From an uncultured Synergistales bacterium (GTDB lineage Bacteria; Synergistota; Synergistia; Synergistales; Aminobacteriaceae), in NCBI GenBank assembly GCA_905233525.1, contig CAJOEW010000009.1, forward strand, positions 11,898-75,897: a stretch of 64,000 nt of DNA, read 5' to 3'. This document shows positions 236-19,052 of this stretch, in pieces (within the stretch, counting starts at the first letter, position 1; every line of letters begins with the position of its first letter). Position numbers and translations under genes: made by a program. The notes under the pieces are model-generated. The model did not search any database. It saw nothing but the letters and a program-made list of their open reading frames with translations, and had not been told where the DNA came from.

Positions 236-1843
236 TTATACTGCTGATGAAACAATTTGAGAGGCTTCGTCTTGAATTTTTTTCAAGTGTTCAGGACTCA
301 CGAAACTTTCAGCGTAAATCTTGCATAAATTTTCAGTACCTGACGGACGAGCAGCAAACCAGCCATTTTCTGTAACGACTTTCAAGCCGCCGATCTTAGC
401 ATTATTTCCAGGAGCATTTGTTAATTTCGCAGTGATCTTATCGCCAGCGAGAGTATCAGCCTTTAAATTTTCAGGTGACAATTTTCCGAGCGCTGTTTTT
501 TGTTCAGGTGTAGCCGGCGTATCTGTACGGGCATAATATGATTTTCCGTATTTAGCTGTAATTTCTGCAAAGTGCTGTGCCGGATTCTTACCTGTTGCGG
601 CTGTTATTTCTACTGCTAACAAGTCCATAATTATTCCGTCTTTGTCAGTTGTCCACACTGAGCCGTCCTTACATAAAAATGAAGCGCCTGCACTTTCTTC
701 GCCTCCGAATCCCATTGAGCCGTCAAGCAAGCCTTCAACAAACCATTTAAAACCTACAGGAACTTCACAAACTTTACGGCCGATTCCATTTGTAACGCGA
801 TCGATTATTGAACTTGAAACTACAGTTTTTCCGACGGCAGCATCTTTACGCCAATTTGATCTCGTTGTGAAAAGATGTTGTACAGCTACAGCAAGATAAG
901 CATTAGGATTCATGAGTCCTTCAGGCGTTACGATTCCGTGTCTGTCATAATCTGTATCATTTCCGAAAGCTATATCATAATCATTTTTGAGCTTGATTAA
1001 ATTCGCCATAGCATACGGTGATGAGCAATCCATTCTGATTTTACCGTCATGATCAGGCGGCATAAATGAGAACGTAGGATCTAAATTCGGATTAACGACT
1101 TCAAGATTTTTAATGCCGTAAATTTCTTTGATAGGATCCCAATAATAAATACCAGAACCGCCCAAAGGATCAGCGCCGATTTTTAAACCTGATTTTGCGA
1201 TTACATCCATGTCCACGACTGAAGCGAGAGCCTTTACATACGGTATAACATAATCTTCAAAATGAACGTTATCTAATTTTATTGCTTTCTCAAAAGGAAT
1301 GCGCTTAATAGAATTTACACCGAGCTTTATTAACTCATTGGCGCGGCTCTGAATTTTATTTGTTGTCTCTGGACTTGCCGGGCCTCCTGAAATCGGATCG
1401 TATTTAATTCCGCCGTCAGTAGGAGGATTATGTGAAGGAGTTATTACCATTCCGTCGGCCTGATGATTTTTATTATTGCGGTTATGTTCGAGAATTGCGC
1501 GTGATACAACAGGAGTTGGAGTCGGTTTAAAATCTTCCTGTAAAATAATTTCAACACCATTTGCAGCAAGAACTTCAACACAAGTGCGCATGGCAGGTTC
1601 TGATAAAGCATGTGTATCTGCTCCGATATATAACGGTCCTGTAACGCCTTCGGCTTTTCTGTGTTCTGCAACGGCTTGAGCGATCGCCAAAATATGAGCC
1701 TCGTTAAAACTATGAAGAGCTGAGCTTCCGCGATGGCCTGATGTTCCGAAAGATACTTGATGAGTTTTATTATCAGGATCCGGCGCAAGTGAATAATAAT
1801 CGCTGATTAAAGCCGGAATGTTTACGATAGTGCGTTTTTCCAT
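236..1843 (-). CDS. pgm: phosphoglucomutase (alpha-D-phosphohexomutase family)
   Basis: The ORF-track ORF contains [10 protein letters not shown] and the phosphoserine loop TPSHNP. I moved the start to ATG 1843 (MEKRTIV...) because GAGGAGG lies about 9 nt upstream, inside the longer ORF-track extension. Confidence 0.9.
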
Positions 1844-1990
1844 AAAAATAAGCCTCCTCAAAAAATTTAAGCGTGTAAGAAATTAAAGAATACTCAAAAA
1901 AAACGCTGTCAAGCATAAAACTTAAATGCATTCAGCGTCAAGGCTAATACTCACCAAAATTAAAGCGTTTAAAAATTTTGCGAGGAGTTT

Positions 1991-3093
1991 TTATTTTTTG
2001 AGTCCGATCCTGTATAAAAATTCGATCCATAACATTTTGACCGTACGTTTTAACCAGTCAGGATAAATTTTATTAAGGATCTTTAAAAATATTCTGATTG
2101 TCCAATGCGGTTTGATTGTGATTTTTTGTTCAGGAACGGCGTTGAGCATAATTTTTGCAAGCTCTTCACGAGTCGTATTTTCTCCCCACGCGGAACGCAG
2201 ATAATAATCCCAATAAAAATATTGTGCCGGCATTCCTGTAACGTTCCATAATTTCGGGCGTGCTGCTGTATGAATGATCGTTCCTGTTAATTCTTCGTGC
2301 GTTTTAGGAAGGATTGTCATTTTATTAAATTTGCTGTCTATAAATTTCACGTGATTATAAAACAATGAGTTCAATATGTCTTGATCATTCCATTCGCATA
2401 AATGTATATAGCGCCGATAATATTCAAGTGATCTTTCAAAAAGATTCATATTCTTACGAATCTCATACAAATTCATAAATATCATACCGGCGTTAAAATA
2501 GGTTTTAATGTCAAAATGATTGAGCCTGCATTTTACGCGTTGAAATTTGTACGGCTGTATCTTATTCGAAAGAATGTTATGTATATATTCATCAATGACG
2601 ACTGCTGCATAATAATTTTCAAGCTCGATATTCCATAATTCGCTTATATCTAAATCAACGATCATATCGCAGTCAAGGTGAATAACTTTGTCTTGTTTAA
2701 TACACGCTGGCACTAGTAATCTAAAAATAATTCCGATTGAGACTCTTCCTATGTTTTGAATAATTTCATTCGAGAGCTGTTTTTCGTATGGACTTAGATC
2801 AATAAAATTTACTTCTTGGTTATATTTTTCGGCTGTACGTAAAAATTTTTGCTTGTTATCGTCTGTTAATGTCTCATCGTGCAAAATATGTATTGTTACA
2901 GGTGATTTCGTGTTCTCAAAAATTGATGTCATTACGACTCCGGCGTGCTGCGAATATTTTCCGGTTGGATCATATAATGATAATGCTACATGAATTTTAT
3001 TTTCTTCGTTCTGATTTTGGGCATTATTAAGGCGATGTGCGATGTGCGATGTGCGATGTGCGATGTGCGATTATACTGGACTTCGTCGTTCAT
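1991..3093 (-). pseudogene. family 8 glycosyltransferase (LPS/general-stress GspA-like), interrupted at a 5' heptanucleotide repeat (apparent phase-OFF state)
   Basis: The body (ORF track 1991..2932) carries GT8-like motifs HLDCDMIV (DxD) and FNAGMIFMNL. The same frame continues upstream without a start codon as ...KIHVALSLYDPTGKYSQHAGVV-MTSIF. A strong SD (GGAGG 3101-3105) plus ATG 3093 sits in a different frame, and the two are separated by the 7-nt repeat tract. Confidence 0.75.
3032..3071 (-). repeat. tandem heptanucleotide repeat: GCGATGT x5 plus a partial copy (coding-strand ACATCGC)
   Basis: Read directly from the sequence. There are five perfect 7-nt units at 3032-3066, followed by GCGAT at 3067-3071. 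Confidence 0.97.
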
Positions 3094-3165
3094 GTCAAGA
3101 CCTCCTGAAAATTTATATTACTACCGCAAAATTCTAACATAATTATTTGATTCATTGTACCGCGC

Positions 3166-3200
3166 AAAATAATACCGCCTCTCACAAATGCAAGAGACGG
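3166..3200 (-). terminator. intrinsic terminator downstream of thrB
   Basis: On the minus-strand RNA, CCGUCUCU...AGAGGCGG forms an 8-bp stem (one G-U pair; plus-strand 3175-3200). It is followed by a U-rich run (UAUUAUUUU), directly after the thrB stop. Confidence 0.6.
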
Positions 3201-3215
3201 AAGATTTAATCGTGT

Positions 3216-4139
3216 TTAACTTTTTTCAATCAATGCGCCGTATTTAGGACAGTTCAATACAAAAAAATGCGACGCTGCTTTACCTTCAGTGAAAATTCTG
3301 CACATGGCCTTGGCTAAATTTCCTGCTTTGCCTCTCACAATAGCAATAACTGTAGGACCGGAACCGCTGATCGCTGTAGCAACACAATCCGGACGCGATT
3401 GGATCTCGTTTAAAAATTTTTCGCCTATACCTGCTGGAAATAATTTTGCTCTGTGATTTTGATGTAAGCGATCTTCCATTCCAACGTGAAGCAAATCCCA
3501 ACGTCCCATCGCCCAAGCTGAACACAATATGCTGGCATGACTGACATTAAATACAGCGTCTTTAAACGGCACGCTTTCAGGTAAAATTTTCCGCGCGTCT
3601 TCTGTGTGAACTTCAAAATCCGGCACTGTTGCAATAATATTAAAATCGCTCGGTAATGCTGGCAGTTTAACATAGCGCAATGTCTCACCGTCCCAGCATG
3701 ATACAGTCATACCGCCTAAATAACACGGCACAACATTGTCAGGATGTCCTTCGATTAAAGTCATTACACGTAATAATTCACCTTCAGTTTTTCGAAGGCC
3801 ATGAATTATATTCGCGATCATTACTCCAGCTACAACCGCCGTCGATGAACTGCCTAAGCCGCGATTTAACGGGATTGCATTGCAGCTCTCAAAATCAAAT
3901 CCGGTTTCAGGAACTCCCCAAATTTCGCAGGCTCTTATATAACTTTTGACGATTAAATTTTTTCGAACGTCTTTTAATTCGTTGACACCTTCGCCAATGA
4001 TCGAACACGTAAAATCACCAGCCGGCAATAATTTTTTTATCGTGAATATATTATATAAGCTCAATGCCATGCCTAATGTATCAAATCCTGAACCTAAATT
4101 TGCTGTAGTCGCTGGAATTTTTAATACTAGTTCTGACAT
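3216..4139 (-). CDS. thrB: homoserine kinase
   Basis: The GHMP-kinase motif PLNRGLGSSSTAVVAG and the N-terminal ATTANLGSGFDTLG are present. The gene overlaps the thrC stop by 13 nt. Confidence 0.9.
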   Translation of the reverse strand: MSELVLKIPATTANLGSGFDTLGMALSLYNIFTIKKLLPAGDFTCSIIGEGVNELKDVRKNLIVKSYIRACEIWGVPETGFDFESCNAIPLNRGLGSSSTAVVAGVMIANIIHGLRKTEGELLRVMTLIEGHPDNVVPCYLGGMTVSCWDGETLRYVKLPALPSDFNIIATVPDFEVHTEDARKILPESVPFKDAVFNVSHASILCSAWAMGRWDLLHVGMEDRLHQNHRAKLFPAGIGEKFLNEIQSRPDCVATAISGSGPTVIAIVRGKAGNLAKAMCRIFTEGKAASHFFVLNCPKYGALIEKS

Positions 4140-5170
4140 AGTACTTTCATTAAGGCTTCGGGAGTGTCATCAATTTCGATCGGGCTTCCTACTTGAGTCA
4201 TAGCTGTGTCAGGATCTTTTAAGCCGTTGCCGGTCAAAATCATCGTTACTAAAATATTTTCAGGTAATCTGTTTTCGCGTTTGAGCTTCATTAAACCTGC
4301 TAACGGTGCACAAGACGCAGGCTCAGCAAAAACTCCGCCTTCACTCGCTAATAATTTTTGAGCTTCTAAAATTTCCTGATCAGTCACTGAATTAAATTCG
4401 CCGCCTGATTCTTTTACTGCTGCTTTAGCTAAATGAGCACTCACAGGATTTCCAATTCTGATCGCAGTAGCAATTGTTTCAGGATTCGGACAAGGCTTAT
4501 TTGTTACAAGAGGTGCCGCTCCTTCTGCCTGGAAGCCGTACATTTTAGGAAGTGCTTTTATTTTTCCCATGTCTGCATAAACGTTATAACCTGCCCAATA
4601 TGCGCTTATGTTACCAGCATTTCCAACCGGTATAGCATGAATATCAGGAGCACGCCCTAGAAAATCGCATATCTCCCAAGCTCCTGAACGCTGGCCGATC
4701 AATCTATAAGGATTAACAGAATTTACCATAGCGCAGCCTGTTCTCTCAGCTCCTTCACGCGCAAGCTCTAAAGCTCTGTCAAAATTACCTTTTACAGCGA
4801 TGACCTTTGCTCCGTACATTAAAGCCTGTGCCAATTTTCCAAGAGCAACTTTACCGGCAGGCAATAAAACAAAACACGGTATACCAACTGACGCAGCATA
4901 AGCCGCAGCTGAAGCCGATGTGTTACCAGTTGAAGCACATATTACGGCGCGCTTACCTTCTTCAAGAGCTTTTGCAACAGCTAACACCATTCCGCGATCT
5001 TTAAATGAGCCGGACGGATTACAGCCTTCAAATTTTCCAAATAAACGAATCCCTAAACGCGCTCCAACTCTTGGAAGCTCTATTAACGGCGTTGAGCCTT
5101 CCTCTAAATTTACGCGCGGCGTTTTGTACGTTAACGGTAATAATTTTTCATAATGCCTTAAAATTCCCAT
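4127..5170 (-). CDS. thrC: threonine synthase
   Basis: The PLP-lysine motif NPSGSFKDRG is present. The length of about 347 aa is typical of short-form ThrC, and the gene is operonic with thrB. Confidence 0.9.
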   Translation of the reverse strand: MGILRHYEKLLPLTYKTPRVNLEEGSTPLIELPRVGARLGIRLFGKFEGCNPSGSFKDRGMVLAVAKALEEGKRAVICASTGNTSASAAAYAASVGIPCFVLLPAGKVALGKLAQALMYGAKVIAVKGNFDRALELAREGAERTGCAMVNSVNPYRLIGQRSGAWEICDFLGRAPDIHAIPVGNAGNISAYWAGYNVYADMGKIKALPKMYGFQAEGAAPLVTNKPCPNPETIATAIRIGNPVSAHLAKAAVKESGGEFNSVTDQEILEAQKLLASEGGVFAEPASCAPLAGLMKLKRENRLPENILVTMILTGNGLKDPDTAMTQVGSPIEIDDTPEALMKVLCQN

Positions 5171-5283
5171 GATTAAAAAAAATTCCTCCCTATTAAAAAA
5201 TTTTCAACGTTCGTATTTTATCTCATAACACTGACGTAAAATTATTTTTTCGTTTTTACGCAGTTGTTATTAAAATTATTCGC

Positions 5284-6774
5284 TCATTCCTCAAAGGCCG
5301 GCTTATTCTGTAAAATTGCGCTGCCGTTCTTTGCAAAAGCTATACTCATGATTCCTATATACTTATCAAAAAATTGTGTAAGCTCCTGCTCAGTCATTTT
5401 GAGGCCAAGGCGGTTTAATACCCTGTTTATAATTGAGAATAGATTCAACGTGCTTAAATAGTTATTCTCAATTTCGTTTATAACGTCCTGCAATACTGAC
5501 TCTGTTTTTAATTCGATATTGCCTGACATGTAAAACTCATCGATGTAAAAAAATTCTATACGGTTATTTTGCAACCGCTGATAATAAGCTTGTGAGCAAT
5601 TATCATATTCAAGCATTACTAAAAATTTTATCTCAGGCGTTAATTCAATCAATGGCCAAAAATCACAATCACTTGAAATTATTACGGCTGAATCTATTGG
5701 CGAACCTTCGTTATTGCATTGCGTGAACTCCCTGTAAAATTTTATAGTCAATGCAACATCTACAGCTGATTTTTCATCTTTGACGCGATCTGTTAAATAA
5801 TATTCGAGCGGTAAATTTTCACTTCGTCTCAACGCACGCCATTGAGTTGACGTATGCTCATCATCAACGAGCAGGACTTTATAAATTTTCTCATTGAGTC
5901 CCTGTTGTTCCAAATGTTTAAATATTCCTATGACTTTACACGGATCGGCATTCTCGCAATCAATAGCTACCAAAATTTTATGAGCATTATTAAAAAATTC
6001 CGTAGGATCATTTAATGCAGCGTCGCCGGCCTCTGTAACTTTGCTCATATCGTAAAATTTATCTCTGTTATGTTCGTAAAGAATAGGCAAAAATTTCGCG
6101 TCATCTCTTAAAATATTTCCGTCACCGTCATCAGGAAGCCAGTTCATATAAGTTTGATACGGGAATAAATCTCGGCATTCTCCATAAATTCTCGCGGCTT
6201 CTTTATTTCCGTCGACAGTGTTGCCTCTTGGAACGAAGAATAAATTTTTTATGTAGTTCCATTTCACCCAGTCAGGAATAAATTTTTGACAGTTCGGAAC
6301 ATGCGGTAATAAATAATTGTGAACGTCAACGATATAATCTTCAAGCTTGCGTCTTGCTCGTACGAACATTATGCCGTCATTTTCAAGAGCCTTTAATGAT
6401 TCTTGCGGTACTAGATCTGGAATTGAGTCAATGTTTTTTATGTCGGAATTCATTTCTGTGAAGATTGCTCTGAAATTTTTTTGCAGCTTAGTTCGTAGAA
6501 TACAAAGATGTCTGACTATGCGTGCCTCTTTATCTTGATTAAGTTCGTCATAAACGCTTCTATAAAATTGAGGATTCATATTTTCAGTTTGGCCTATACC
6601 GAAATATTTTTCATCGATTCCGATTAAATAAGCCACGCGCGAAACAATATCACGTTTAGATTTTGGCGTATCACCTCCCTGACGCAGCATTAAGTCCGGC
6701 AAATTCTCCGAAAAATTTTGCAGCGATGCCCTTTTGTCATCATCTAGCAGGCTGCCTATACTTAGTTCACTCAT
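5284..6774 (-). CDS. NYN/LabA-like (PIN-fold) domain protein with a large unassigned N-terminal region
   Basis: The C-terminal half shows the NYN signature series: ILVAIDCENADP (DxEN), SAVDVALTIKF and AVIISSDCDFWPLIE (SxDxDF). I recognise nothing in the first ~270 aa. The gene is monocistronic and visibly more AT-rich than its neighbours. Confidence 0.55.
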   Translation of the reverse strand: MSELSIGSLLDDDKRASLQNFSENLPDLMLRQGGDTPKSKRDIVSRVAYLIGIDEKYFGIGQTENMNPQFYRSVYDELNQDKEARIVRHLCILRTKLQKNFRAIFTEMNSDIKNIDSIPDLVPQESLKALENDGIMFVRARRKLEDYIVDVHNYLLPHVPNCQKFIPDWVKWNYIKNLFFVPRGNTVDGNKEAARIYGECRDLFPYQTYMNWLPDDGDGNILRDDAKFLPILYEHNRDKFYDMSKVTEAGDAALNDPTEFFNNAHKILVAIDCENADPCKVIGIFKHLEQQGLNEKIYKVLLVDDEHTSTQWRALRRSENLPLEYYLTDRVKDEKSAVDVALTIKFYREFTQCNNEGSPIDSAVIISSDCDFWPLIELTPEIKFLVMLEYDNCSQAYYQRLQNNRIEFFYIDEFYMSGNIELKTESVLQDVINEIENNYLSTLNLFSIINRVLNRLGLKMTEQELTQFFDKYIGIMSIAFAKNGSAILQNKPAFEE

Positions 6775-6932
6775 AAAAAATAATCACTCCTTTACAAATA
6801 TAATAATTATATAAAATTTGAAGGCTTAAATTTCTCATGTTCATGTTCACGTATTCAGCCGGCTCATTTTTTAAAATGTCTATACTATAATTAGCGCATT
6901 CAAAAATCTTTTCATGAAAGGACTGTTACAAA

Positions 6933-9900
6933 TTGAAGCGAAGATTTTTTCTAGCTATCGCGCTTGTAATTATGAGTCTTGTTACTCAGGCTTCAGGCGC
7001 TGCGATGCCGTCTGGTGTTCAAAGTTTTGTGCCGTCTGGTGTAGTTCCTGATAATGTTTCATTCAGGATCGTTTTTAAAAATCCCGTCGTCACTAAAAAA
7101 GACACCGGCAAAAGTATTAAACAGAACAGCGATTTATTCCCGATTGAAATTGTACCGCTGGTTCAAATTGAGGGACGCTGGCAAAATGAACGCACGTTCA
7201 CAGCAAAATTATTATCGCCTCTTCAAAGTGCCACATCGTATACAGCAACTTTAAAGGACTTACGCGACAGAAAAGGCAATAAGATCGGTCCGGGCAGTTT
7301 CAAATTTCAAACAGAAGGACTCAAACCTGAAGACATTCGTGCCTCTATGACAAGAGACGGACGCGCAAATTTTGATCTTAATTTCAATATGAAAGTCGAT
7401 CCGGCGCGTTTGAAAGGCTTCATGAAAATAATCAATCCTAAAGGTAAAGAAATACCTTACACAATTAACGGAGCTTTACCAGGAAAAATGATCCGCGTTT
7501 CATTTCCTGTCGATAAGGTTGCTTCACGCCAGCGCTTCACGGTAAATATTGCTGCCGGTTTGAAATCAAGCGAGGGCGATTTAGGAATCACCAGAGATTA
7601 TTCTGAAAGCGTTGTGCTTGATCCTGAATTGATCGTTCAAGGTCTTTATCCTGATGAAAATTCGATCAGAGTGCCTTTTAATTTCGGTATCGACGCAGAA
7701 ATTGCTAAGAGCTTTATAACAGTTGAACCGGCTGTAAATAATCTGCGTATTGAAAACAGTTACAGCGATGAAATTATTTACCTGCGTTCAGATGAATTTA
7801 AACCGCGTGACAGATTTGTAATCACGTTTAAAAAAGGTTTTCCTGCAAAAGGCGGGATCGTCCTCAAAGAAGATTTTAAACAAGCTGTAATTATGCCTGA
7901 CCTTGATTCGGAGGTTAATTTAGCTTCTGCAGGAACGTATTTAACTTCGTTGAATGATGCTTTAATTCCTGTAGAGCTTTTAAACGTTAAACGCCTTCAA
8001 ATAGATTTATGGAGACTCTACGAAAATAATATACCGTTTGTTGTTCGAGGCGATTATGATTCATTCAAAAAAGATCTTGCGCAGCGGGTTTACACGAAAG
8101 AAATAAATTTATCGCTTCCATTGAACGAACGCGTAAGAAAAAGTATACCCGTTAGCGAAATGGCTAAAGACCAGCGCGGATTATTTTTATTAACGATTCG
8201 CGACGCTGATAAACCGTATTGGGCTGAAAGCTCGCAAATGATTAACTTGAGTGATATCGGCGTTGTGGCTCGTTTATGGGAGGACGGCGTTTTAATCTGG
8301 ACGAACAAATTAACAGAACAAAAAGAAATTGCCGAAGCCAACGTAAAAATTTATTCGTCAGCAAATCAAATCATAGCCGAAGGTAAAACAGATCTTGACG
8401 GTGTATTTTATTTTGATCTCAAAAATAAAACATGGGATGAAGATAATCAGCCGGCTCTCGCTGTAATATCAAAGACTGATGAAAATTCACACACTGATTT
8501 AACTTATGTTGAGCTTAGAAATAATTTATTAGACCGTGAAATTTTTGATACTTCCGGCCGTGCATGGATCAAATCAGGTTATGACGCTGAAATAATTTCT
8601 CCGAGAGATATTTACAGAACGGGCGAGACTGCAGAATTTAAAGCCATTGTCAGAAATCCTGATTTAACGACTCCAGAAGCATTCCCTGTATTATTTACAG
8701 TTCGTGACAGCATTGGACGTAAAGTAATTCAAGAGCCTGTAACACTCAATGACAGAGGCAGCGCTGTTTTTAAATTAAACCTTCCGAATAACGCCGTAAC
8801 AGGTTCATGGAATGTAGCTTTAACGATTCCGGGCAATGATAAAAATTATTTAGCCGTTCATGATTTTCACGTTGAAGACTTTGCACCGCCTCGTATAGAA
8901 GTAAAATTAAGCTCAACGAATGAATTTTTATATCACAAAGATATTTTCACGGCTGATATTTATTCGCGCTGGTTGTTTGGAGTTGACGGAGCCGGCTTAA
9001 AATATGATGCTTCATGGACAGCGAGAGAAGCTAATTTTGTTCCTGAAAGCGAAAATTTAAAGGCTTACACATTCGGAGATCCTGATCGCAGATTTTCATA
9101 CACAGAAGGATTTTTTAACAGCGGTAATCTTGATAATTTCGGTGCTGCTCGTTTAGATTTAACATTGTCAGAACAATGGGAGGCACCTACAGCGATCGAC
9201 GTTACAATTAAAGCGGAAGTCATCGAAGACAGCGGAAGACCTGTAGCAAATTTCATTACGCGCCGTTATTTTCCTGCTAAGTGGTTATTAGGCATTGCTC
9301 CTTTAAGCGGTAAGCTCACAGTAAGAAATGATTTAAAATTCAGCGTGAAGGCCATCGATCCAAAAGAAAAGCCGATCGATCCAGGTGAATTAAATGCAGA
9401 ATTTTTCAAGGTCTCATGGAATTATAATCTCGTTGAAATTGACGGTTATAAACGCTGGCAGAGTTCAGAGGAATTAACAAAGATCGATGAAAAATCATTA
9501 ACGCTTAAAAACGGCACGGGCGAAATTTCTTTCAAGCCTGAGTCTTATGGAACATATCTTGTAAAAATTTCCGATCAGGATGACAGCGCAAGAGCCGTAT
9601 ATAGATTTTACGCTGATGATCCTAAATATGCCGGCGGCTCGTCGCAATTGATTGACCGTGTGGAAATTGAAACAGATAAAGAATTTTATGAGGTCGGCGA
9701 CACAGCTAAAATAAAAGTAAAAGCGCCGTTCGAAGGTTTATTATTAACGACGGTTGAAGGCAGCAAATTATTTTCACGCAGAGTCCAGGCTGTTAAAAAT
9801 TCTGAAACTGTTATAGAAATTCCGGTGACTCAAAATTTTGAGCCTAACGCATGGTTTACAGCATGGTTAATACGTCCTGTTCAAACTATTGACGCTAACG

Positions 9901-12257
9901 CGTGGGCATCACATAGAGCGATCGGTATCAAAAAAATTAACATCAATCTTTCAAGCTATAAAATTGACGTTGCGATCGAAGCTCCTGAAAAAATTGAGCC
10001 TGCTAAAAAATTACCTGTCACGATTAAATTAAAAGCTCTTAACAGACGCATAACAAAAGCCGCTGATGTTTCTGTTGCGCTCGTTGATGACGGAGTATTA
10101 AATTTAACGCATTATAAAGTCCCTGACTTATTAAATTATTTCTGGGGAGTCAAGCGTTTAAATTCAGAGGGCTTTGATATTTACGATCAATTGATTCCGA
10201 TTGAAGACCGAGCGACCGAACAATTAAGACCTGGCGGCGATATGTCGTTAGCAGCGTTAGCCGGTGGAAATGATGTAAAGAGATTCAAAATTTTGTCGCT
10301 TGCGAATTTTACAGCGTCACCTGATGAAAACGGAAATTTAAAAATTGATTTCGATGTGCCGGAATTCAGCGGACGCGGAAAATTATTTGTAGTAGCAGCT
10401 TCAGGAAAATATTTCGGTTCAGCAGAACAGAATATACAAATCGCGCGTGAAGTTGTTACGGAGGCAGGTTTACCGAGATTTGCAGCGCCTGGTGATGGTT
10501 TTGTGATACCTGTTACGATTTTCAATACTGCGAATAATAATAAAGACGTTAAAATTGAATTCGTACCTGAAGGAATGACTCTTGACAGCTCAAATTCAAG
10601 TGTAAGTCTTAACGCTAATGACAGCAAAAAAATCAGTGTTCAGGCTCATGTATTAGACGGCGTGAACGTTGCAAAGTTGAAAATTATTACGAGCTGGCAG
10701 GGAAATTCATTTACGCAAGATTTTGAAATGCCTGTACGTTCAGCATGGCCTGTCACAACGATCGGAGGTTCTGGAATTTTTGACGGAGGCGAGAATCGTT
10801 TAAGCATTCCTGTTAATGAATTTTACGGCGATATTTCAGGCTCATTAACGTTAGCAGATACGCCGGCAGTAAATTTAACGAGGGCGGCAGAATTTTTATT
10901 GAGTTATCCTTATGCATGCCTTGAGCAAACAATTTCGACTGCGTGGCCGTTTTTGGTATTACCTGACGCGATTTCAGAGATCGATTCGTTATTAGTGAAC
11001 AATGAAGACGTTAAGCGCAAGACTCAAGACGCAGTAACACGTATTCAGGCCATGCAGTTATATGACGGTTCGTTCTCTATGTGGCCTGGCTCCGGAACTC
11101 CTTACAATTGGGGAAGTGTTTACGCAGCTCATTTCCTGTTAAGCGCAAAAGCTGCCGGCATAAATTATCCTGAGGACATGTTAAACGGCGTTTTATCATG
11201 GTTGCGTCAGTTCTTAGCTTCAATGCCTGAATACAAAAACGAAGGCGAAGAATATGACGATTTAACAGCAAAAGCTTACGCTGTGTACGTGTTAGCTTTA
11301 AATAACGAGAAGCCTTTAGGCTGGATTGAATATTTACGTGAGAATATAAATACAATGTGGCCGTCAGGAAAAATTTATTTAGCCGGTGCTCAAGCAATCA
11401 TCGAAGGTAAATCGGACGCGTTACGCAATTTAACATTAGGCACTCAAAAAATTTCAGGCTACCGTACTTTAGAGAGTGAAGCGCGTAATTTGTCGATATT
11501 GCTTACAATGTGGCTTAACGTTGATCCTGCTGCCGATGAAGTTCACGAATTAGCGGAACGTCTTGCAAAATTGAGCAACGCTTCAAAATTAACTAACACT
11601 CAAGATAATGCGGCGGCGTTAATGGCGTTAGCCCGTTATAATTCCGAAGTCAACAGCTCACGCAGCAATATTAAAGCGCGTTTAACGACTGAGACCAGCG
11701 ACGAAGCTTTATTAAAATATGAAAAGGGTAAGCCTGCGTCAATAAGCCTTAAAGATTTAAAAGACGGTAACGTGATAATTGAAGCCGAAGGTGAAGGAAG
11801 CGGCTATTATTCATGGAGCATAACCGGAAATTCAAAAGCTCGTCCAAAACCTGAGCGCAAAAATATTTTCATTGAATGCAATTATTACGACGAACAAGGC
11901 AACGCGATCGACATTACCCAGCCTGTAAAACATGGTCTTGTTATTCAATTAGTGCTTAACATTCGTCCGGCTGTACCTGTGAATTATTTAGCGGTGAATT
12001 ATTTATTGCCTGCTGGTCTTGAAATCGAGAATCCAAGAATAAACGACGGCGATAATAATTATTCTGTATTCAGTGACATCCGTGACGACAGGTTAATATT
12101 ATTCTTTGACCGTTTAACTCGCGAGACATCATACGGAATAAAACTGCGTGCTGTTACAAAAGGTACATTTGCCGTTCCTCAAGTATCAGCCTTTGGAATG
12201 TATGATCCTGCGGTGAGATTTACAGGCCGTGCTCAAAGCGATCTGGTAATCAAATAA
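6933..12257 (+). CDS. alpha-2-macroglobulin family protein (thioester-containing, secreted)
   Basis: This is a 1774-aa ORF with a TTG start. The N-terminal signal peptide is MKRRFFLAIALVIMSLVTQASGAA. The thioester motif CLEQ is at 10917-10928 in the context YPYACLEQTIS. Size and architecture match bacterial A2M (YfhM-like). Confidence 0.85.
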   Translation: MKRRFFLAIALVIMSLVTQASGAAMPSGVQSFVPSGVVPDNVSFRIVFKNPVVTKKDTGKSIKQNSDLFPIEIVPLVQIEGRWQNERTFTAKLLSPLQSATSYTATLKDLRDRKGNKIGPGSFKFQTEGLKPEDIRASMTRDGRANFDLNFNMKVDPARLKGFMKIINPKGKEIPYTINGALPGKMIRVSFPVDKVASRQRFTVNIAAGLKSSEGDLGITRDYSESVVLDPELIVQGLYPDENSIRVPFNFGIDAEIAKSFITVEPAVNNLRIENSYSDEIIYLRSDEFKPRDRFVITFKKGFPAKGGIVLKEDFKQAVIMPDLDSEVNLASAGTYLTSLNDALIPVELLNVKRLQIDLWRLYENNIPFVVRGDYDSFKKDLAQRVYTKEINLSLPLNERVRKSIPVSEMAKDQRGLFLLTIRDADKPYWAESSQMINLSDIGVVARLWEDGVLIWTNKLTEQKEIAEANVKIYSSANQIIAEGKTDLDGVFYFDLKNKTWDEDNQPALAVISKTDENSHTDLTYVELRNNLLDREIFDTSGRAWIKSGYDAEIISPRDIYRTGETAEFKAIVRNPDLTTPEAFPVLFTVRDSIGRKVIQEPVTLNDRGSAVFKLNLPNNAVTGSWNVALTIPGNDKNYLAVHDFHVEDFAPPRIEVKLSSTNEFLYHKDIFTADIYSRWLFGVDGAGLKYDASWTAREANFVPESENLKAYTFGDPDRRFSYTEGFFNSGNLDNFGAARLDLTLSEQWEAPTAIDVTIKAEVIEDSGRPVANFITRRYFPAKWLLGIAPLSGKLTVRNDLKFSVKAIDPKEKPIDPGELNAEFFKVSWNYNLVEIDGYKRWQSSEELTKIDEKSLTLKNGTGEISFKPESYGTYLVKISDQDDSARAVYRFYADDPKYAGGSSQLIDRVEIETDKEFYEVGDTAKIKVKAPFEGLLLTTVEGSKLFSRRVQAVKNSETVIEIPVTQNFEPNAWFTAWLIRPVQTIDANAWASHRAIGIKKININLSSYKIDVAIEAPEKIEPAKKLPVTIKLKALNRRITKAADVSVALVDDGVLNLTHYKVPDLLNYFWGVKRLNSEGFDIYDQLIPIEDRATEQLRPGGDMSLAALAGGNDVKRFKILSLANFTASPDENGNLKIDFDVPEFSGRGKLFVVAASGKYFGSAEQNIQIAREVVTEAGLPRFAAPGDGFVIPVTIFNTANNNKDVKIEFVPEGMTLDSSNSSVSLNANDSKKISVQAHVLDGVNVAKLKIITSWQGNSFTQDFEMPVRSAWPVTTIGGSGIFDGGENRLSIPVNEFYGDISGSLTLADTPAVNLTRAAEFLLSYPYACLEQTISTAWPFLVLPDAISEIDSLLVNNEDVKRKTQDAVTRIQAMQLYDGSFSMWPGSGTPYNWGSVYAAHFLLSAKAAGINYPEDMLNGVLSWLRQFLASMPEYKNEGEEYDDLTAKAYAVYVLALNNEKPLGWIEYLRENINTMWPSGKIYLAGAQAIIEGKSDALRNLTLGTQKISGYRTLESEARNLSILLTMWLNVDPAADEVHELAERLAKLSNASKLTNTQDNAAALMALARYNSEVNSSRSNIKARLTTETSDEALLKYEKGKPASISLKDLKDGNVIIEAEGEGSGYYSWSITGNSKARPKPERKNIFIECNYYDEQGNAIDITQPVKHGLVIQLVLNIRPAVPVNYLAVNYLLPAGLEIENPRINDGDNNYSVFSDIRDDRLILFFDRLTRETSYGIKLRAVTKGTFAVPQVSAFGMYDPAVRFTGRAQSDLVIK

Positions 12258-12281
12258 TTTAATATCAACGAATTTTTTAAG

Positions 12282-12313
12282 GCAGTTCTGATTTTTTCGG
12301 AGCTGCTTTTTTT
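12282..12313 (+). terminator. intrinsic terminator after the alpha-2-macroglobulin gene
   Basis: GCAGTTCTG-ATTTTTT-CGGAGCTGC forms a 9-bp stem (two G-U pairs) and is followed by T7. Confidence 0.65.
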
Positions 12314-12376
12314 ATCGCCTGTTTTGATATAATTTGCGTGTCAAATCGTATGAATGGAGGTTGATTTTTTTGGAAT

Positions 12377-13405
12377 TTGCATATAATAAAATTGATCAGA
12401 GATCAGAGATCAGAGCCTGTCCTATTGTCCGTAATCACATCTACTTTCAACCGCGCGGACATGTTAAAAAGATCTGTTGACAGCGTTTTAAATCAAAACT
12501 TAAAAAATATCGAACACATAATAATTGACAATTGCTCCACTGATGATACAGAACAGCTCGTAAAAAATATTCAAGCAAAAGATCCAAGAGTCATTTATAT
12601 AAAAAATACAATAAGCGTAAGACAGGAAGAAAATCGCGGACGCGGATTAACAAAAGCTCGCGGAAAATATATAGCATTCATTGATGACGATGATTATTAT
12701 ACGGACATGGATTTTTTTAAAAGAGCCGTTGAAATTTTTGAGAACAATCCAGAAAAAAATTTAGCCTTCGTTGCCGCTAACGTCGAAATAAAAAATGAAG
12801 ACTCCGGAGAAATTTCACGTAATGATATCGGCGCTACTGGTTATATGAGCGGAATGGATTATATTTTTAATCCGAATAACGATCACCATAAACCGATCTC
12901 AACTTTTCCTGCTGTTCGTAAAGCTGAATATTTAAAGCAGGCTGGATTATGCGATAAATTTATTTTTGATACAAACTCATATTATTATTCAGCTCTGTAC
13001 GGCGGCGTTTATTTGTTACCTGATGTTATAGGCGTGTACGTTGTGCATAATAAAAGCCAGACTGTCGGATATCATAAAGGCGACGATGAATATATAAAAA
13101 AATTTTTGCTCGCTCATTCTGAATGCCTAAAACAATATAAAGAACTCAGAGATATTCTTTACACTCGCATGAATAAAAAAATCGTCAGCAGGTGGTACGC
13201 TTCAACAATAGTCGGTTTCAATCAATGGTGTTTTATTTCCGTGTCTAAGTTCAGCGAACGTATTTATATGTCCTTAAAAACTTGGAGATCATCCGGTTAT
13301 ATGCCAAGAGTTATTTTTTATTTTGTGAAGGCGTTTTTAAGACCAAGGCTCAGTAAAATTACACCGCTCAAAAAATTATATAGATTCCTGAAAGGTAAAA
13401 GGTAA
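12377..13405 (+). CDS. family 2 glycosyltransferase
   Basis: GT2 N-terminal pattern LLSVITSTFNRADML...IIIDNCSTDDT...AFIDDDD is present. The start is uncertain. TTG 12377 is in frame but lies 16 nt from GGAGG (12356-12360). TTG 12370 has better spacing but is in another frame (see findings). Confidence 0.75.
   Translation: MHIIKLIRDQRSEPVLLSVITSTFNRADMLKRSVDSVLNQNLKNIEHIIIDNCSTDDTEQLVKNIQAKDPRVIYIKNTISVRQEENRGRGLTKARGKYIAFIDDDDYYTDMDFFKRAVEIFENNPEKNLAFVAANVEIKNEDSGEISRNDIGATGYMSGMDYIFNPNNDHHKPISTFPAVRKAEYLKQAGLCDKFIFDTNSYYYSALYGGVYLLPDVIGVYVVHNKSQTVGYHKGDDEYIKKFLLAHSECLKQYKELRDILYTRMNKKIVSRWYASTIVGFNQWCFISVSKFSERIYMSLKTWRSSGYMPRVIFYFVKAFLRPRLSKITPLKKLYRFLKGKR
12394..12414 (+). repeat. tandem heptanucleotide repeat GATCAGA x3 within the first codons of the GT2 gene
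   Basis: Read directly from the sequence. There are three perfect 7-nt units. Confidence 0.95.
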
Positions 13406-13420
13406 GTCTGAAAAAATTTC

Positions 13421-13454
13421 TCCCTCTGAAGAATCTTAACAGAGGGATTTTTTT
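13421..13454. terminator. bidirectional hairpin between convergent GT2 and dxs genes
   Basis: TCCCTCTG...CAGAGGGA forms an 8-bp stem with an 11-nt loop, followed by T7 on the plus strand. It overlaps the last codons and the stop of dxs. Confidence 0.5.
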
Positions 13455-15256
13455 ATTTGATTGATTATATTTTCCGGTGTGATTCCAAAAATTTCGCGCT
13501 GCTCGTCAGATTTTGCATGCTGAACACAAACGCACGGCACTTCAAATTTTAAAAGCTTGTTCGTAAAATTATTACCGGCCATGTAACTCGCTATAATTTC
13601 TGAAATTCCGCCGGCCTCATAATTTTCACCAGATACCGCGATTATTTCATATTCTCTTAAAATTTTGTCGAGCTCTTCAAAATCAAACGGCTTCACGCGC
13701 CTGATATCATATACAGCAGGATTAAATATTCCTTCTGATTTTGCAAGATCACGAGCCTTTAAATTTATTCCTGTAGCAATTCCATGACCTATTAACGCAA
13801 TTTTATCGCCTGAATAAATATTTAATATTGCGTTATTATTTTCGTTAGTGATTTTTATTCCGATATCCTGCAAATTTCCGCGAGGATAACGAATCATTAC
13901 AGGCTTTGAAATATTTGCGGTCATGTGCATAATTTCGCGTAATGAATTTTCATCGGACGGCGTGTAAATTTCCAGATTAGGGATCGCACGTGCCCATGAT
14001 ATATCTAATAAACCTTGATGAGTATCGCCGTCAGAACCTACCAAGCCTGCACGATCGACCATTAAAATTACCGGCAAATTCTGTAACGCTATGTCATGCA
14101 TCAATTGATCCGCCGCACGCTGTAAAAATGTCGAATATATAAAAACATACGGCTTCATTCCTCCAGCTGCTAAACCTGCCGCCATTGTTAACATATGACT
14201 TTCAGCTATACCGACATCAAAAAATCTCTTTGAAAATTTTTGTGCGAATCTCTCAAGTTTTACGCCTGTAGCCATTGCCGCTGTTAAACATACGATTTTT
14301 TTATTATTCGGCGCTAATTCGTTCGTGATAATTTCTGAAGCAGCTTCGCTCCATGTACGTTTTTTTATTTCTCCGCGCGGTGATACTTGATGATATTTTA
14401 CAGGATCTTTTTCAGCTTCCGGCATTCCTTTACCTTTGACCGTATTAAAATGCAATAACACCGGCTTATCATAATCCTTAGCCATTTTCATGACGCGCAT
14501 ACATGTTTGAATGTCATGGCCGTCAAAAACTCCCCAGTAATTTATATCCAGCGAGTCAAAAATATTTTCAGGCTTTAATAAATTCTTTACACGGTCGCGA
14601 ATAAATTCAAGCAGCTTAAAAAATTTATGGCTCGAATGTTTTTTAACAGCTTTTTTAAAATTCCTGTAATGGCTGTTCGCTGACAGTCTTGCTAAAATCG
14701 TTGAGAAACCTCCAACGCGCGCGCTTATAGAATGCTGGTTATCGTTCAGAATTATTATTATCTTCGTGCCTGTCTCATGAACGTAATTTAAAGCTTCAAG
14801 CGCAAGTCCGTTAATTAAAGCTCCGTCGCCTATAAAAGCTATTATTTGCCGCTGTTCGTTTAAAAGATCTCTGGCCTTAGCATATCCAAGAGCCGCTGAA
14901 ATTGATGTGCTGCTGTGTCCTGTATTAAAATGATCGCACGGACTTTCAGAACGCCTGGGAAATCCGCACAAGCCGTCTTTTAATCTCAACGTATCAAATT
15001 TATCAAAACGATCCGTCAAAATTTTATAGGGATATGATTGATGGCCGACATCGAAAATAATTCGATCGTTATATGGATTGAACGTCCTTAACATTGCGAT
15101 CGTAAGCTCTACAACACCAAGCGATGATCCTAAATGGCCGCCGTTGTTCGTAACTGTTTTAATTATCTTGTCACGGACTTCAGCAGCCAGATCATTTAAA
15201 TTATTTTCTGGAATTTTTAAAAGGTCGCTGTGTTTGAAACCAGGGTGTAAAAACAT
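13436..15256 (-). CDS. dxs: 1-deoxy-D-xylulose-5-phosphate synthase
   Basis: Contains GHSSTSISAALG and the ThDP-binding motif IGDGALINGLALEALN. Length is 606 aa. Confidence 0.9.
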   Translation of the reverse strand: MFLHPGFKHSDLLKIPENNLNDLAAEVRDKIIKTVTNNGGHLGSSLGVVELTIAMLRTFNPYNDRIIFDVGHQSYPYKILTDRFDKFDTLRLKDGLCGFPRRSESPCDHFNTGHSSTSISAALGYAKARDLLNEQRQIIAFIGDGALINGLALEALNYVHETGTKIIIILNDNQHSISARVGGFSTILARLSANSHYRNFKKAVKKHSSHKFFKLLEFIRDRVKNLLKPENIFDSLDINYWGVFDGHDIQTCMRVMKMAKDYDKPVLLHFNTVKGKGMPEAEKDPVKYHQVSPRGEIKKRTWSEAASEIITNELAPNNKKIVCLTAAMATGVKLERFAQKFSKRFFDVGIAESHMLTMAAGLAAGGMKPYVFIYSTFLQRAADQLMHDIALQNLPVILMVDRAGLVGSDGDTHQGLLDISWARAIPNLEIYTPSDENSLREIMHMTANISKPVMIRYPRGNLQDIGIKITNENNNAILNIYSGDKIALIGHGIATGINLKARDLAKSEGIFNPAVYDIRRVKPFDFEELDKILREYEIIAVSGENYEAGGISEIIASYMAGNNFTNKLLKFEVPCVCVQHAKSDEQREIFGITPENIINQIKKSLC

Positions 15257-16645
15257 TTATTCAAACCTGCGAAGCTCATAAGCTGCAAATTGTGATATAA
15301 GTTGTAACGAAGTTATTTGCGTTTTATCAAGAGCAGATTCTTTTTTCGTAACGCCTGAACCGATTGAGATTATCCCGACTAAATAATTATCATCGCACAA
15401 CGGAAATATATATCTCATTGAATATTCTTTCATAATTTCTTTCCATGGACAGCCGGCTAATCCCCATGATTTAAAAACTTCGTCAGGCGAAATTTCTGCG
15501 AGGTCATAACTTTCTTCCTTGACATTTTCAACTGTTATAGGTCCGTTCGCCGGCAATAACGTTTGATCGATATTAGCTCTGAAATTTCCTGTGCGTCTCT
15601 CTGATAATGTATATCCGTTGCGTAATTTGCTCCATGTCACAAGTAAACAGCTCTGCATTCTGCAATGTTCCATGAAGATCTCAAGAAGCAGTGAGAAAAA
15701 TTTTCCCTGACTGTCTGCCGCGCGTAATACTTTAATGACATTTGAAAGAGACATGATCGTAAATTCACCGGCTGAAGCTCCTTCTTCTGCACGCTGTGAT
15801 TTTATTCTTAATCTTCCAATTGCGATCGCACGTACAGCCAAAGTTCCAAGCAGCTCTAAAAAATTCATGGCCTGTTCGTCTGGAAGCTCATCCCATTGCA
15901 TTACACAAAATAATCTCAAATCACCTTCAGCTATCGGCAGCACAACCTGAAACGGCGTTTGATGTCTTGTTACAACGGGCGAAGGTGTTAATAAATTTTC
16001 GGCGTAGATTCCCTTGCGTTCAGGTATTTTATCTGTTTTGCCTGTGTAAAGCGTTAAATAATTTCCTTCGTCTTTAAGTATTACCAAAAATTTCGGGAAT
16101 AAGCTTTCTTGTATAGCGTCCTTCAAAAATGAGGCGAAATACTGCAGCGGCATAGGCTCAAAAATTGAAGCGAGAGTATTTTTTGTAGCAAGCACCATAT
16201 AAGATAATCTTGATAATTTTTTTTCAGTGTCAGTTACGTGTCTGAAAGTCTGCCATAATTTTATGAAGCCTGCGTAAGGTTTCAATTGATCGATCAAATT
16301 TACAGGATCAAGCGGTTGTTTTTTAAGCAGTATATAAATTTCCCAGTCCTGACTCCTGATTTGAATCACGCCCGGCCATTCTTCAGAGCCTTCAGAATAA
16401 GTTGTATCAAGTGCATGATGAGAAAGAGCGTTTGTAAATAATTTTGTTATATTATTTTCGATAGTGAGACTCTGCGGAACATATCCTCCTGCAGTTTCAA
16501 GAATATTAAGCGTTTTATTTTTATCAAACGGTTCTGCGATGATAGCTTGAAAATTTTGTTGTGTTAAAAAATCGCTCAACATGTTCAAAATTCCGCCGCT
16601 TATTATAAAATCTGTCTGGCTGTATAAATTCTCAATATCGTTCAT
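15257..16645 (-). CDS. hypothetical protein (no family recognised)
   Basis: This is a 462-aa ORF. Its TAA stop (15259..15257) abuts the dxs ATG (15256) directly, so the two genes are in one operon. I found no catalytic motif. Confidence 0.6.
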   Translation of the reverse strand: MNDIENLYSQTDFIISGGILNMLSDFLTQQNFQAIIAEPFDKNKTLNILETAGGYVPQSLTIENNITKLFTNALSHHALDTTYSEGSEEWPGVIQIRSQDWEIYILLKKQPLDPVNLIDQLKPYAGFIKLWQTFRHVTDTEKKLSRLSYMVLATKNTLASIFEPMPLQYFASFLKDAIQESLFPKFLVILKDEGNYLTLYTGKTDKIPERKGIYAENLLTPSPVVTRHQTPFQVVLPIAEGDLRLFCVMQWDELPDEQAMNFLELLGTLAVRAIAIGRLRIKSQRAEEGASAGEFTIMSLSNVIKVLRAADSQGKFFSLLLEIFMEHCRMQSCLLVTWSKLRNGYTLSERRTGNFRANIDQTLLPANGPITVENVKEESYDLAEISPDEVFKSWGLAGCPWKEIMKEYSMRYIFPLCDDNYLVGIISIGSGVTKKESALDKTQITSLQLISQFAAYELRRFE

Positions 16646-16780
16646 AAAAAAATATCCTCCGTCGTTAATCTTAGTTTGGTTATAATTTTATCGCTTTTTG
16701 AATTTTAAATCGTATAATATATTCATTCGTAGCGATTTGTAAAAAAATTCCTGCCGGAAGGATTGAATATAATAAAAATT

Positions 16781-17005
16781 ATGATACAGGTACACAGACT
16801 TAACGGCGAGTCCTTTTTATTGAACTCCGATATGATCGAGACCGTTGACGTAACTCCTGACACAGTCATCCGTTTGTTGAATGGCCATAGATATGTGGTT
16901 CGTGAGAAAACGGCTGAATTATATAAAAAAATAATTGGTTTCAGAAAAGCGGCCGGTTATACTTGCATAGTTGCTAACACCGCTGACGAGACCGAGCAGC
17001 AGTAG
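16781..17005 (+). CDS. flbD: flagellar protein FlbD
   Basis: MIQVHRLNGESFLLNSDMIETVD...RYVVREKTAEL matches the FlbD family pattern, and the gene lies directly upstream of motA. I prefer ATG 16781 over the ORF-track TTG 16763. Confidence 0.75.
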   Translation: MIQVHRLNGESFLLNSDMIETVDVTPDTVIRLLNGHRYVVREKTAELYKKIIGFRKAAGYTCIVANTADETEQQ

Positions 17006-17026
17006 TCAGGAGGCGTTTTAATTTAA

Positions 17027-17800: not shown

Positions 17801-17803
17801 TAA

Positions 17804-18532: not shown

Positions 18533-18569
18533 AATTAAGCATATAAAAAAAGGATGAGCTGATCTTAAA

Positions 18570-19022
18570 ATGAAACGTATTATAATTTTTGCGGTCGTCG
18601 GACTTGTAATGTTCGGCGTAGGTTTTGGAGGCGGTTTATTATTAGGGCGTTCAATGGCACCTTCGGATGAAGCTTCAGGCATAAATAAAAGCGTTCCGAC
18701 ACCTGGCCCTACGGTATCAATCGGAGAATTTACAAGCAATTTGGCAGGCGGAGGCCGTCATGTAATTTCTTTTACGTTATCGCTTGAGCTTATAGAAAAT
18801 GAAGCGGCTGTCGCACTCGTTCAAACTCCTGCATGGCTTGTAAGAATCCGTAACGAAGTTTTTATGACTGCTAAAGATCGAGTATATGACGATCTTACGA
18901 GCGCTGAAGGTACATTACAATTTGCAGCTGATATAAAACGCAATCTCAATTCAATATTACCTGATGTGAACGGCGAGCCTCCAGTCGAACGTGTATATTT
19001 TGAGAATATAATCCTGCAGTAA
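18570..19022 (+). CDS. fliL: flagellar basal body-associated protein FliL
   Basis: This is a 150-aa protein with an N-terminal TM and a FliL-like core (FTSNLAGGGRHVISFTLSLEL). It lies between motB and fliM. Confidence 0.8.
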   Translation: MKRIIIFAVVGLVMFGVGFGGGLLLGRSMAPSDEASGINKSVPTPGPTVSIGEFTSNLAGGGRHVISFTLSLELIENEAAVALVQTPAWLVRIRNEVFMTAKDRVYDDLTSAEGTLQFAADIKRNLNSILPDVNGEPPVERVYFENIILQ

Positions 19023-19052
19023 ATTTTTAAAACGTTAGGTGGTGATTAGATT

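Follow-up and report, generated by a model that had tools for sequence, protein, structure and literature searches.

Introduction

Phase variation of glycosyltransferases through simple sequence repeats (SSRs) is textbook knowledge. In lgtC, the repeat is a tetranucleotide (GACA) in Haemophilus and a poly-G tract in Neisseria, while the (CAAT)n genes lic1 and lic2 of H. influenzae have start codons in more than one frame. A different arrangement is found in the promoter-spacer switches hif, porA and opc, where the repeat lies between the −35 and −10 elements and its copy number sets their spacing. Heptanucleotide units are also known: one controls phase variation of the glycosyltransferase gene pglE of N. 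meningitidis (PMC7157529), and hmw1A and hmw2A of H. influenzae carry (ATCTTTC)n (PMC2651432, PMC12721329). When the promoter upstream of the hmw1A tract was deleted, changes in copy number were strongly impaired (PMC12721329). Whether multi-locus phase variation is truly confined to pathogens is a question raised in a 2025 review (PMC11868660). Here we analyse a 64-kb stretch of a metagenome assembly from an uncultured member of the Synergistaceae (the window; positions count from its first letter), in which five copies of a heptanucleotide separate a Shine-Dalgarno (SD) sequence and ATG from the body of a family 8 glycosyltransferase (GT8). The tract is very probably a slipped-strand contingency switch that turns this putative surface-glycan enzyme ON and OFF at the level of translation.

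A heptanucleotide tract separates the start codon from the GT8 reading frame

The 5′ region of the GT8 gene contains the following features (nt, nucleotides; aa, amino acids; ORF, open reading frame).

3101..3106, minus strand: Shine-Dalgarno AGGAGG, 7 nt before the ATG; AGGAG is kept at the same position across the family
3091..3093, minus strand: leader start codon ATG (MNDEVQYN...); same start in the related contigs L002 and L213, there in frame with the enzyme
3032..3071, minus strand: heptanucleotide tract; the coding strand has five ACATCGC units and 5 nt of a partial one, and the plus strand correspondingly GCGATGT
2986..3093, minus strand: dead-end ORF of 35 codons, read from the SD and ATG in the 5-unit state; stop TAG 2988..2986
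1991..3070, minus strand: GT8 (LgtC-like) reading frame, 359 open codons; DxD and metal-binding His intact
2978..2995, minus strand: codons for strand β1 of the GT-A fold (IHVALS), which precede the mechanically called Met
2930..2932, minus strand: internal Met, residue 57 of the 6-unit protein, inside helix α1; start of the mechanically called, database-annotated 313-aa ORF

Tandem Repeats Finder reports one array at 3032–3071 (period 7, 5.7 copies, 100% matches, score 80), which is the highest-scoring repeat of the window, and 100 dinucleotide-preserving shuffles gave 0.00 occurrences of three GCGATGT-pattern units. The tract is a perfect repeat in the 5′ coding region, runs from codon 8, and has a unit that is not divisible by 3. 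Read from the SD and ATG, the 5-unit frame encodes MNDEVQYN RTSHIAH RTSHIA LIMPKIRTKKIKFM and ends at TAG 2988..2986. The GT8 frame is closed on its upstream side by TAA 3073..3071 and is open from 3070 to the stop at 1993..1991. The initial annotation of this DNA had placed the repeat, the SD, the ATG and the 35-codon frame at exactly these positions. It had also held that the GT8 frame has neither a start codon nor an SD of its own. The first part stands, as no ATG, GTG or TTG occurs in this frame upstream of Met 2932; the second needs a nuance, as a GGAG lies 5 nt upstream of Met 2932, formed by conserved Ala-Gly-Val codons. The gene has a single usable start frame in the window, with ATG 3140 and TTG 3098 both running into the TGA of TTGACATGA.

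A 7-nt unit shifts the reading frame, so that the start codon is fused to the enzyme only by tracts of 3, 6, 9 (and so on) units. Specifically, in-silico edits of the copy number yielded full-length proteins only at 3, 6 and 9 units (362, 369 and 376 aa, respectively), and at 1, 2, 4, 5, 7 and 8 units the frame ended after 12–42 codons, matching the earlier prediction that gain of one unit or loss of two would restore the fusion.

The segment upstream of Met 2932 belongs to an LgtC-like enzyme

The conceptual 6-unit protein matches Pfam PF01501 with 121.4 bits (gathering cut-off 24.3) over residues 47–265. Its best match by sequence in the PDB is LgtC (E 3e-15), and its best solved-structure match by fold is LgtC 1G9R (E 3e-17, TM 0.75). 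In an alignment of 15 homologues, residues D143, D145, D239 and H277 are invariant and the DQD motif is conserved; the LDCD motif containing D143 and D145 aligns with LDID of LgtC. Homologues are named lipopolysaccharide (LPS) glycosyltransferases by their sources. Read from these comparisons, the assignment as an LgtC-like GT8 enzyme is firm.

The Pfam alignment begins at residue 47, 10 residues before Met 2932 (residue 57), which favours the earlier reading that the enzyme extends upstream of this Met. In the AlphaFold model (pLDDT 84, pTM 0.83), β1 comprises residues 36–41 and α1 residues 48–63, while residues 1–30, corresponding to the leader and the repeat peptide, are disordered. The segment IHVALSxYDPxGxYSQHAGVV is nearly invariant among the 15 homologues, and its differences from the family member L002 are mostly synonymous third-position changes. 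The segment upstream of Met 2932 therefore belongs to the enzyme, where it contributes β1 and the first half of α1 to the N-terminal nucleotide-binding unit of the GT-A fold, as had been proposed for the first β-strand from the sequence of the window. The tract falls after codon 8 of the only ORF able to encode β1. A functional start at Met 2932 was considered and rejected: it would delete β1 and half of α1, and several relatives have Ile at this position. The body of the gene carries no further lesion, its 359 codons being open and its DxD, DQD and His intact; judged by its sequence, the gene is not decaying.

ON and OFF alleles of the GT8 gene occur in near-identical contigs

A contig from another sample (L213, ENA ERZ27234818) is syntenic with window positions 2894–21092 and 99.86% identical over 18.2 kb. 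At its end, the SD, ATG and leader are those of the window, and the tract comprises six units, namely five ACATCGC and the synonymous ACACCGC. The in-frame translation, MNDEVQYNRTSHIAHRTSHIAHRLNN...IHVALSLYDP..., is exactly that predicted for the ON state. The window allele, with 5 units, is OFF, and the L213 allele, with 6 units, is ON. In addition, the locus L002, a family member 52% identical in another genomic context (paralogous or orthologous), has the same promoter, leader and unit, with 3 copies, and is in frame. Comparison of orthologues agrees with the claimed copy-number switching, in that the 6-unit L213 differs from the window and homologous loci are polymorphic both in copy number and in ON/OFF state.

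A further contig (L001, ENA ERZ1667815) is 99.6% identical to the GT8 body, and its 5′ end is replaced, so that it gives no copy-number information. In L001 1–340, equivalent to window position ~2921, an unrelated 102-aa ORF joined at TTTTGAGAACACG takes the place of promoter, tract and β1. L001 is either a genuine deletion or insertion allele in which the gene is locked off, or an assembly chimera. A guess that the 102-aa ORF is AbiEi-like was dropped, as Pfam gave no match.

An exact look-up of the 313-aa ORF returned the source contig only (P0121, source annotation from Met 2932), and the conceptual 362- and 369-aa proteins were absent from the protein collection searched. A metagenome scan with the leader pattern gave 0 matches. 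A scan with three units gave at least 120 loci; among the matches listed, no locus codes for a GT8-family protein and the environments are mostly unrelated, so the repeat unit alone is not diagnostic.

The 5-unit state might instead represent a dead pseudogene or an error of the metagenome-assembled genome (MAG). The window does come from a metagenome assembly, assemblies do break at such tracts (L037, L205, L021 and L213), and the source annotation calls the 313-aa Met-2932 ORF only. Against this, the tract spans 40 nt, below the length of a sequencing read; the 359-codon body is otherwise unlesioned and keeps its catalytic motifs; the architecture is seen again, with many units and lengths, in two gene families and in dozens of assemblies made independently; and ON and OFF alleles are found among contigs that are 99.8–99.9% identical. 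We consider a pseudogene or an assembly error barely credible.

A GT2 gene in the same window carries a second tract

A family 2 glycosyltransferase (GT2) gene of the window has a similar 5′ end.

12325..12415, plus strand: GT2 cassette, with extended −10 TGaTATAAT (12325–12333), GGAGG (12356–12360), −35-like TTGATT (12361–12366), SD-proximal TTG (12370–12372), TATAAT (12382–12387) and (GATCAGA)x3.1 (12394–12415)
12377..13405, plus strand: GT2 glycosyltransferase body; the mechanical ORF starts from a TTG without SD, the source annotation from an internal Met (314 aa)

In the window, the GT2 tract has 3 units and TTG 12370 is out of frame, that is, OFF; 2, 5, 8 or 11 units would restore the frame. 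Contigs of 99.8% identity from further samples have GT2 tracts of 8, 5, 10 and 3 units. The 8-unit allele (L212/P0200, 356 aa, beginning MEFAYNKIDQRSEIR...) and the 5-unit allele (P0231, 349 aa) are in frame from the SD-proximal TTG, and the alleles of 10 units (L214) and 3 units (L213) are OFF. GT2 relatives have pentamer tracts at the same position, (CCAGT)n in L215 and (GCACA)n in L216. Because at least one further glycosyltransferase gene of this genome, the GT2 at 12377, is wired like the GT8 gene, different surface-glycan combinations could arise within one lineage.

These alleles also bear on the speed of switching. The tract could be a true indel hotspot at which changes are rare, producing slow strain-level polymorphism and no rapid, reversible bet-hedging within a clone; indeed, all variation lies between samples or assemblies and never demonstrably in one clone. 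What speaks against rare change is that contigs only ~0.14–0.2% divergent differ at the GT2 tract in three of four comparisons (8, 10 and 5 versus 3 units), that the GT8 tract differs in the one comparison possible, and that tracts of 10–16 perfect, uninterrupted units require ongoing slippage. Since near-identical contigs differ at their tracts, changes of the tract appear far more frequent than point substitutions. We judge slow polymorphism improbable, and favour a contingency switch.

Tract-bearing GT8 genes recur in Synergistaceae

A scan of species-representative genomes yielded 78 loci. In MAGs of Synergistaceae/Fretibacterium, mostly from ruminant gut, 23 GT8 loci have a perfect 5′ tract, located mostly 120–190 nt upstream of the TSIFENT motif. 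Nine units occur (ATCGCAC, GAGCAAC, CACGAGC, GCAACGA, GCCCAAA, CGCCCAA, CGACCAA, GGAATCA and the pentamer CATCA), copies range from 2.7 to ~16, and several paralogues are often present in one genome. Relative to the SD-proximal start, the enzyme is in frame at about 9 of the GT8 loci and out of frame at about 12.

Length polymorphism is also apparent among close relatives. In clusters of 90% identity, protein lengths differ by 7 or 14 aa of repeat peptide (P0028/P0122, P0040/P0133 and P0002/P0184), and the same clusters include short calls that start at the internal Met. At an orthologous locus with the gene order gyrA, GT8, pterin-binding gene, 5.57, 8.57 or 9.57 units are found among nine assemblies with identical flanks. 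No tract is present in relatives from Selenomonadaceae, Quinella and Paenibacillus, nor in the Synergistaceae paralogues L017, L028, L029 and L030. Orthologues from human-oral F. fastidiosum are tract-less and fixed at 345 aa; these and the tract-less L017 and L030 have fixed lengths and a plain SD-ATG-IHV start. In the window plus ~250 kb of related DNA, perfect short tandem repeats (period 4–9, at least 18 nt) have period 7 in 26 cases and period 5 in 2, with no other period found.

At about half of the related loci, the SD is overlapped by a second ATG (tcATGAAAGGAG), which lies in a different frame. Specifically, 'ATGAAAGGAG' is found in L006, L008, L012, L018, L019, L025 and L037, and a second ATG also in L211 and L202. 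In L211 (P0133), with 9.57 units, the enzyme is in frame with the second ATG. Two of the three phases could be translatable at such loci, possibly at different levels.

The loci L209 and L210 encode an identical 309-aa enzyme body and are identical in sequence after the tract; their leaders (VSEYSAKIA and LTGKDSTIA, respectively), their promoter modules and their copy numbers (13.6 and 5.6) differ. This pattern suggests that paralogous cassettes have recombined at the tract or close to it.

Assembly breaks or N-gaps occur at or next to tracts in L037 (an N-gap, ~3040), L205 (an N-run, 1–121), L021 (which begins inside the tract, 1–82), L006 (1–55) and L213 (which ends shortly after the tract). 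Such breaks fit length heterogeneity in the sampled populations, without proving it.

A predicted consensus promoter lies between start codon and tract

Two promoters are predicted at the 5′ end of the GT8 gene.

3131..3139, minus strand: candidate promoter P1, with the extended −10 TGtTAGAAT located 25 nt before the SD; kept in L002 and L213
3093..3098, minus strand: −35 TTGACA of the embedded promoter P2; overlaps the A of the start codon
3070..3075, minus strand: −10 TATAAT of P2, encoding Tyr-Asn; the final 2 nt already follow the register of the repeat

In a promoter scan, P2 (TTGACA-17-TATAAT) matches the σ70 consensus at 12 of 12 positions, with a 17-nt spacer. An embedded promoter with at least 9 of 12 matches is found in 19 of 21 GT8 tract loci, eight of them perfect, with a spacer of 16–18 nt and a −10 that ends 0–1 nt before the tract. 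The information content of the family is 1.8 bits per column in the −35 and 1.64 in the −10, compared with ~0.5 bits in the spacer; within the −10, conservation is lowest at position 3, as is typical of σ70 promoters. Of the 23 tract loci, 21 have the embedded promoter, whereas none of six tract-less Synergistaceae paralogues has it (Fisher p = 6e-5). Furthermore, it is retained at loci with collapsed or degenerate tracts (L018 and L011), and it is also found in the GT2 cassettes of the window, L215 and L216. The leader codons between the hexamers vary freely (MNDEVQYN, MTDETDTM, VSEYSAKIA, VNDNNGII, MQNSQII). That TTGACA and TATAAT are kept merely as codons was considered and rejected, in that the start codon floats 0–10 nt after the −35 and in different frames, whereas the spacing of the hexamers stays at 16–18 nt.

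Of 26 cassette loci, 18 have an extended −10 (TGnTAnAAT) at most 55 nt before the SD, and mostly at a distance of 11–25 nt; the background frequency is 2%. The tract-less L017 has a homologous extended −10 promoter, its sole one, directly before SD-ATG-IHV. Because P1 is homologous to the sole promoter of tract-less paralogues, the translated GT8 mRNA, including SD and ATG, most likely originates from P1. As read from these alignments, the conserved order of the cassette is extended −10, SD, TTGACA at the start codon, 17 nt, TATAAT and tract.

A promoter-spacer switch does not account for this arrangement: the 16–18-nt spacer is non-repetitive, and the tract begins 0–1 nt after the −10. An RNA hairpin of the hmw type was likewise rejected for the GT8 gene (z = +1.92; 196 of 200 shuffles fold at least as well; no complementary arm). 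Searches for tRNA genes and Rfam families returned none in the window, and so no riboswitch or known RNA element at the GT8 5′ end.

The embedded promoter raises the question of whether the tract is instead an untranslated 5′ leader, with P2 initiating inside it and the copy number grading expression as in hmw1A, the frame being irrelevant. A 12/12 promoter abuts the tract and is maintained at 1.6–1.8 bits per column across the family; the ON:OFF ratio is near 1:2, as indifference to frame predicts; and the heptamer tract of hmw1A is a precedent for a transcribed repeat of this kind (PMC12721329). Against this, no ATG, GTG or TTG occurs between the tract and the β1 codons in the window and most relatives, and L009, L022 and L033 have no in-frame start at all. 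Moreover, β1 and α1, which the GT-A fold needs, are under protein-level constraint; the SD, start codon and extended −10 are conserved upstream of the tract; and the tract RNA is less structured than shuffles and has no complementary arm. We regard an untranslated leader as highly unlikely, and retain the frameshift switch as our reading.

For P2, three roles can be envisaged. Our leading guess is that it would load RNA polymerase and thereby melt and transcribe the tract, promoting or tuning slippage or influencing expression. As further candidates, it may compete with or occlude the upstream promoter ~45 bp away, adding a regulatory layer, or it may impose a σ-dependent pause that couples translation to transcription before the tract, or act in slippage at the RNA level. 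By eye, tract length did not correlate with promoter score, and a strict need for optimal P2 geometry in tract variation is unlikely, given that L022 and L033 have a 20-nt spacer and tracts of 8.1 and 11.1 units, respectively.

We tentatively suggest, as a speculation that we would not yet favour, that the whole arrangement is a portable switch cassette, installed at the 5′ ends of genes from two unrelated families, GT8 and GT2, with interchangeable 7- and 5-nt units. P2 would place the open complex and initial transcription on the first units. It would then act either as a locus-specific mutator, by directing slippage to the tract through transcription or by stalling replication there, or at the RNA level, by causing slippage or pausing.

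At 4120–4140 of L017, downstream of its tract-less GT8 gene, there is a (CCAACGC)x3 repeat preceded by TTGACG-17-TACAAT 3 nt away, in a gene cut by the contig end.

Source organism and gene neighbourhood

The named homologues of the GMP synthase, GT8 and GT2 of the window all belong to Synergistaceae. Two features lie upstream of the GT8 gene.

3216..4139: GHMP kinase, homoserine-kinase-like (Pfam)
3165..3200, minus strand: intrinsic terminator of the GHMP kinase gene, with an 11-bp stem (6 G-C pairs) and a loop of 4, followed by TATTATTTTG

Because this terminator precedes it, the GT8 gene appears to form its own transcription unit. Directly downstream, on the same strand, lies a phosphoglucomutase/phosphomannomutase gene (236–1861, minus strand) with its own weak promoter-like site at 1941..1912; it may be linked in function to GT8 via the supply of sugar nucleotides. 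A bacterial α-2-macroglobulin of 1774 aa (6933–12257, plus strand), with domains including MG2, bMG3, bMG5, bMG6, the bait region, TED and bMG10, is encoded between both switchable glycosyltransferase genes. The ORFs at 5284–6774 and 15257–16645 (both minus strand; 496 and 462 aa, respectively) are kept in L213; Pfam assigns neither, and the former has a sub-threshold match to the NYN domain.

Discussion

We propose the following mechanism for the GT8 locus. An mRNA starting from the extended −10 at 3139..3131 would carry AGGAGG, ATG 3093, eight leader codons and (ACATCGC)n, and the tract would be translated as a disordered peptide of the RTSHIAH type leading into the LgtC-like GT8. At n = 5, ribosomes would stop after 35 codons and make no functional enzyme. 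Strand slippage in replication or repair would add or remove units and so toggle the state. The initial annotation had read the tract as a contingency locus that is currently OFF, and the frame logic, the 6-unit ON allele and the polymorphism of the family support that reading. Switching is presumably frequent and reversible within a clone, and the product presumably decorates LPS or another surface glycan.

Several points weigh against this proposal. For this exact GT8 gene, only two alleles (5 and 6 units) are informative; as the sixth unit of L213 has one substitution, a single historical indel is possible at this locus taken alone. The variation is known from assembled consensus sequences and between samples. 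The ON:OFF ratio of ~1:2 would also be expected if the frame did not matter. Initiation from P2 would occur ~7 nt after the −10, inside the first unit, giving an RNA without SD and ATG, which a simple translational model would leave unexplained. Finally, the acceptor, the sugar and the surface location are predicted from family membership alone.

The switch mechanism itself is of a known kind. What appear new are the lineage, the restriction to units of 7 and 5 nt, and the cassette common to GT8 and GT2 genes with a consensus promoter set against the tract. In the literature that we searched, we found nothing on SSR phase variation in Synergistota or Fretibacterium and nothing on a promoter abutting a coding SSR, although absence from that literature is not proof of novelty. 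Our analysis adds Synergistota, a phylum of commensals from the gut, rumen and mouth, to the lineages with multi-locus SSR phase variation. Uncultured Synergistaceae probably vary their surface glycans stochastically, which bears on interactions with phages and the host in the rumen. The findings also concern annotation, in that gene callers and MAG annotations systematically truncate such genes to an internal Met (calls of 313, 314, 301 and 309 aa) and assemblies break at the tracts. In addition, the placement of P2 against a hypermutable tract, together with the need for transcription at hmw1A (PMC12721329), offers a testable handle on the targeting and tuning of localized hypermutation.

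Comparison with known systems

The closest counterpart by enzyme is lgtC of H. influenzae and Neisseria, which shares with the window locus the GT8 family and fold, an SSR in the first codons, ON/OFF control by frameshift and the presence of several such genes per genome. The window locus differs from lgtC in that the unit is 7 nt long, the host is an uncultured member of the gut/rumen Synergistaceae and not a proteobacterial pathogen, a consensus promoter lies between start codon and tract, and the sequence of the unit turns over among paralogues while its position is fixed.

The resemblance to pglE lies in ON/OFF control by a heptamer of a glycosyltransferase that extends a surface glycan; the enzyme family, the organism and the unit sequence are different. 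We know of no report of a promoter embedded against the repeat of pglE. The heptamer is an exception among the poly-G tracts of Neisseria, whereas in the Synergistaceae set 7-nt units, occasionally replaced by 5-nt units, are the only SSR class seen. The suggestion in the initial annotation that this heptamer had not been described needs to be narrowed: heptamer control of a glycosyltransferase is known from pglE (PMC7157529), and it is only this unit sequence and this phylum for which none is known.

The lic1 and lic2 genes likewise have an SSR directly after the start codon or codons, and the second ATG in about half of the related Synergistaceae loci is reminiscent of their multiple starts; the window GT8 gene differs in having one usable start frame. 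With hmw1A and hmw2A, the locus shares a 7-nt unit, a promoter immediately upstream and a transcribed tract. The hmw tract acts as a rheostat in the 5′ untranslated region, where it forms a long RNA hairpin with a G-rich arm that is cleaved by RNase III; the tract of the window, in contrast, lies inside an ORF, is predicted to act by frameshift, and yields an unstructured RNA without a partner arm.

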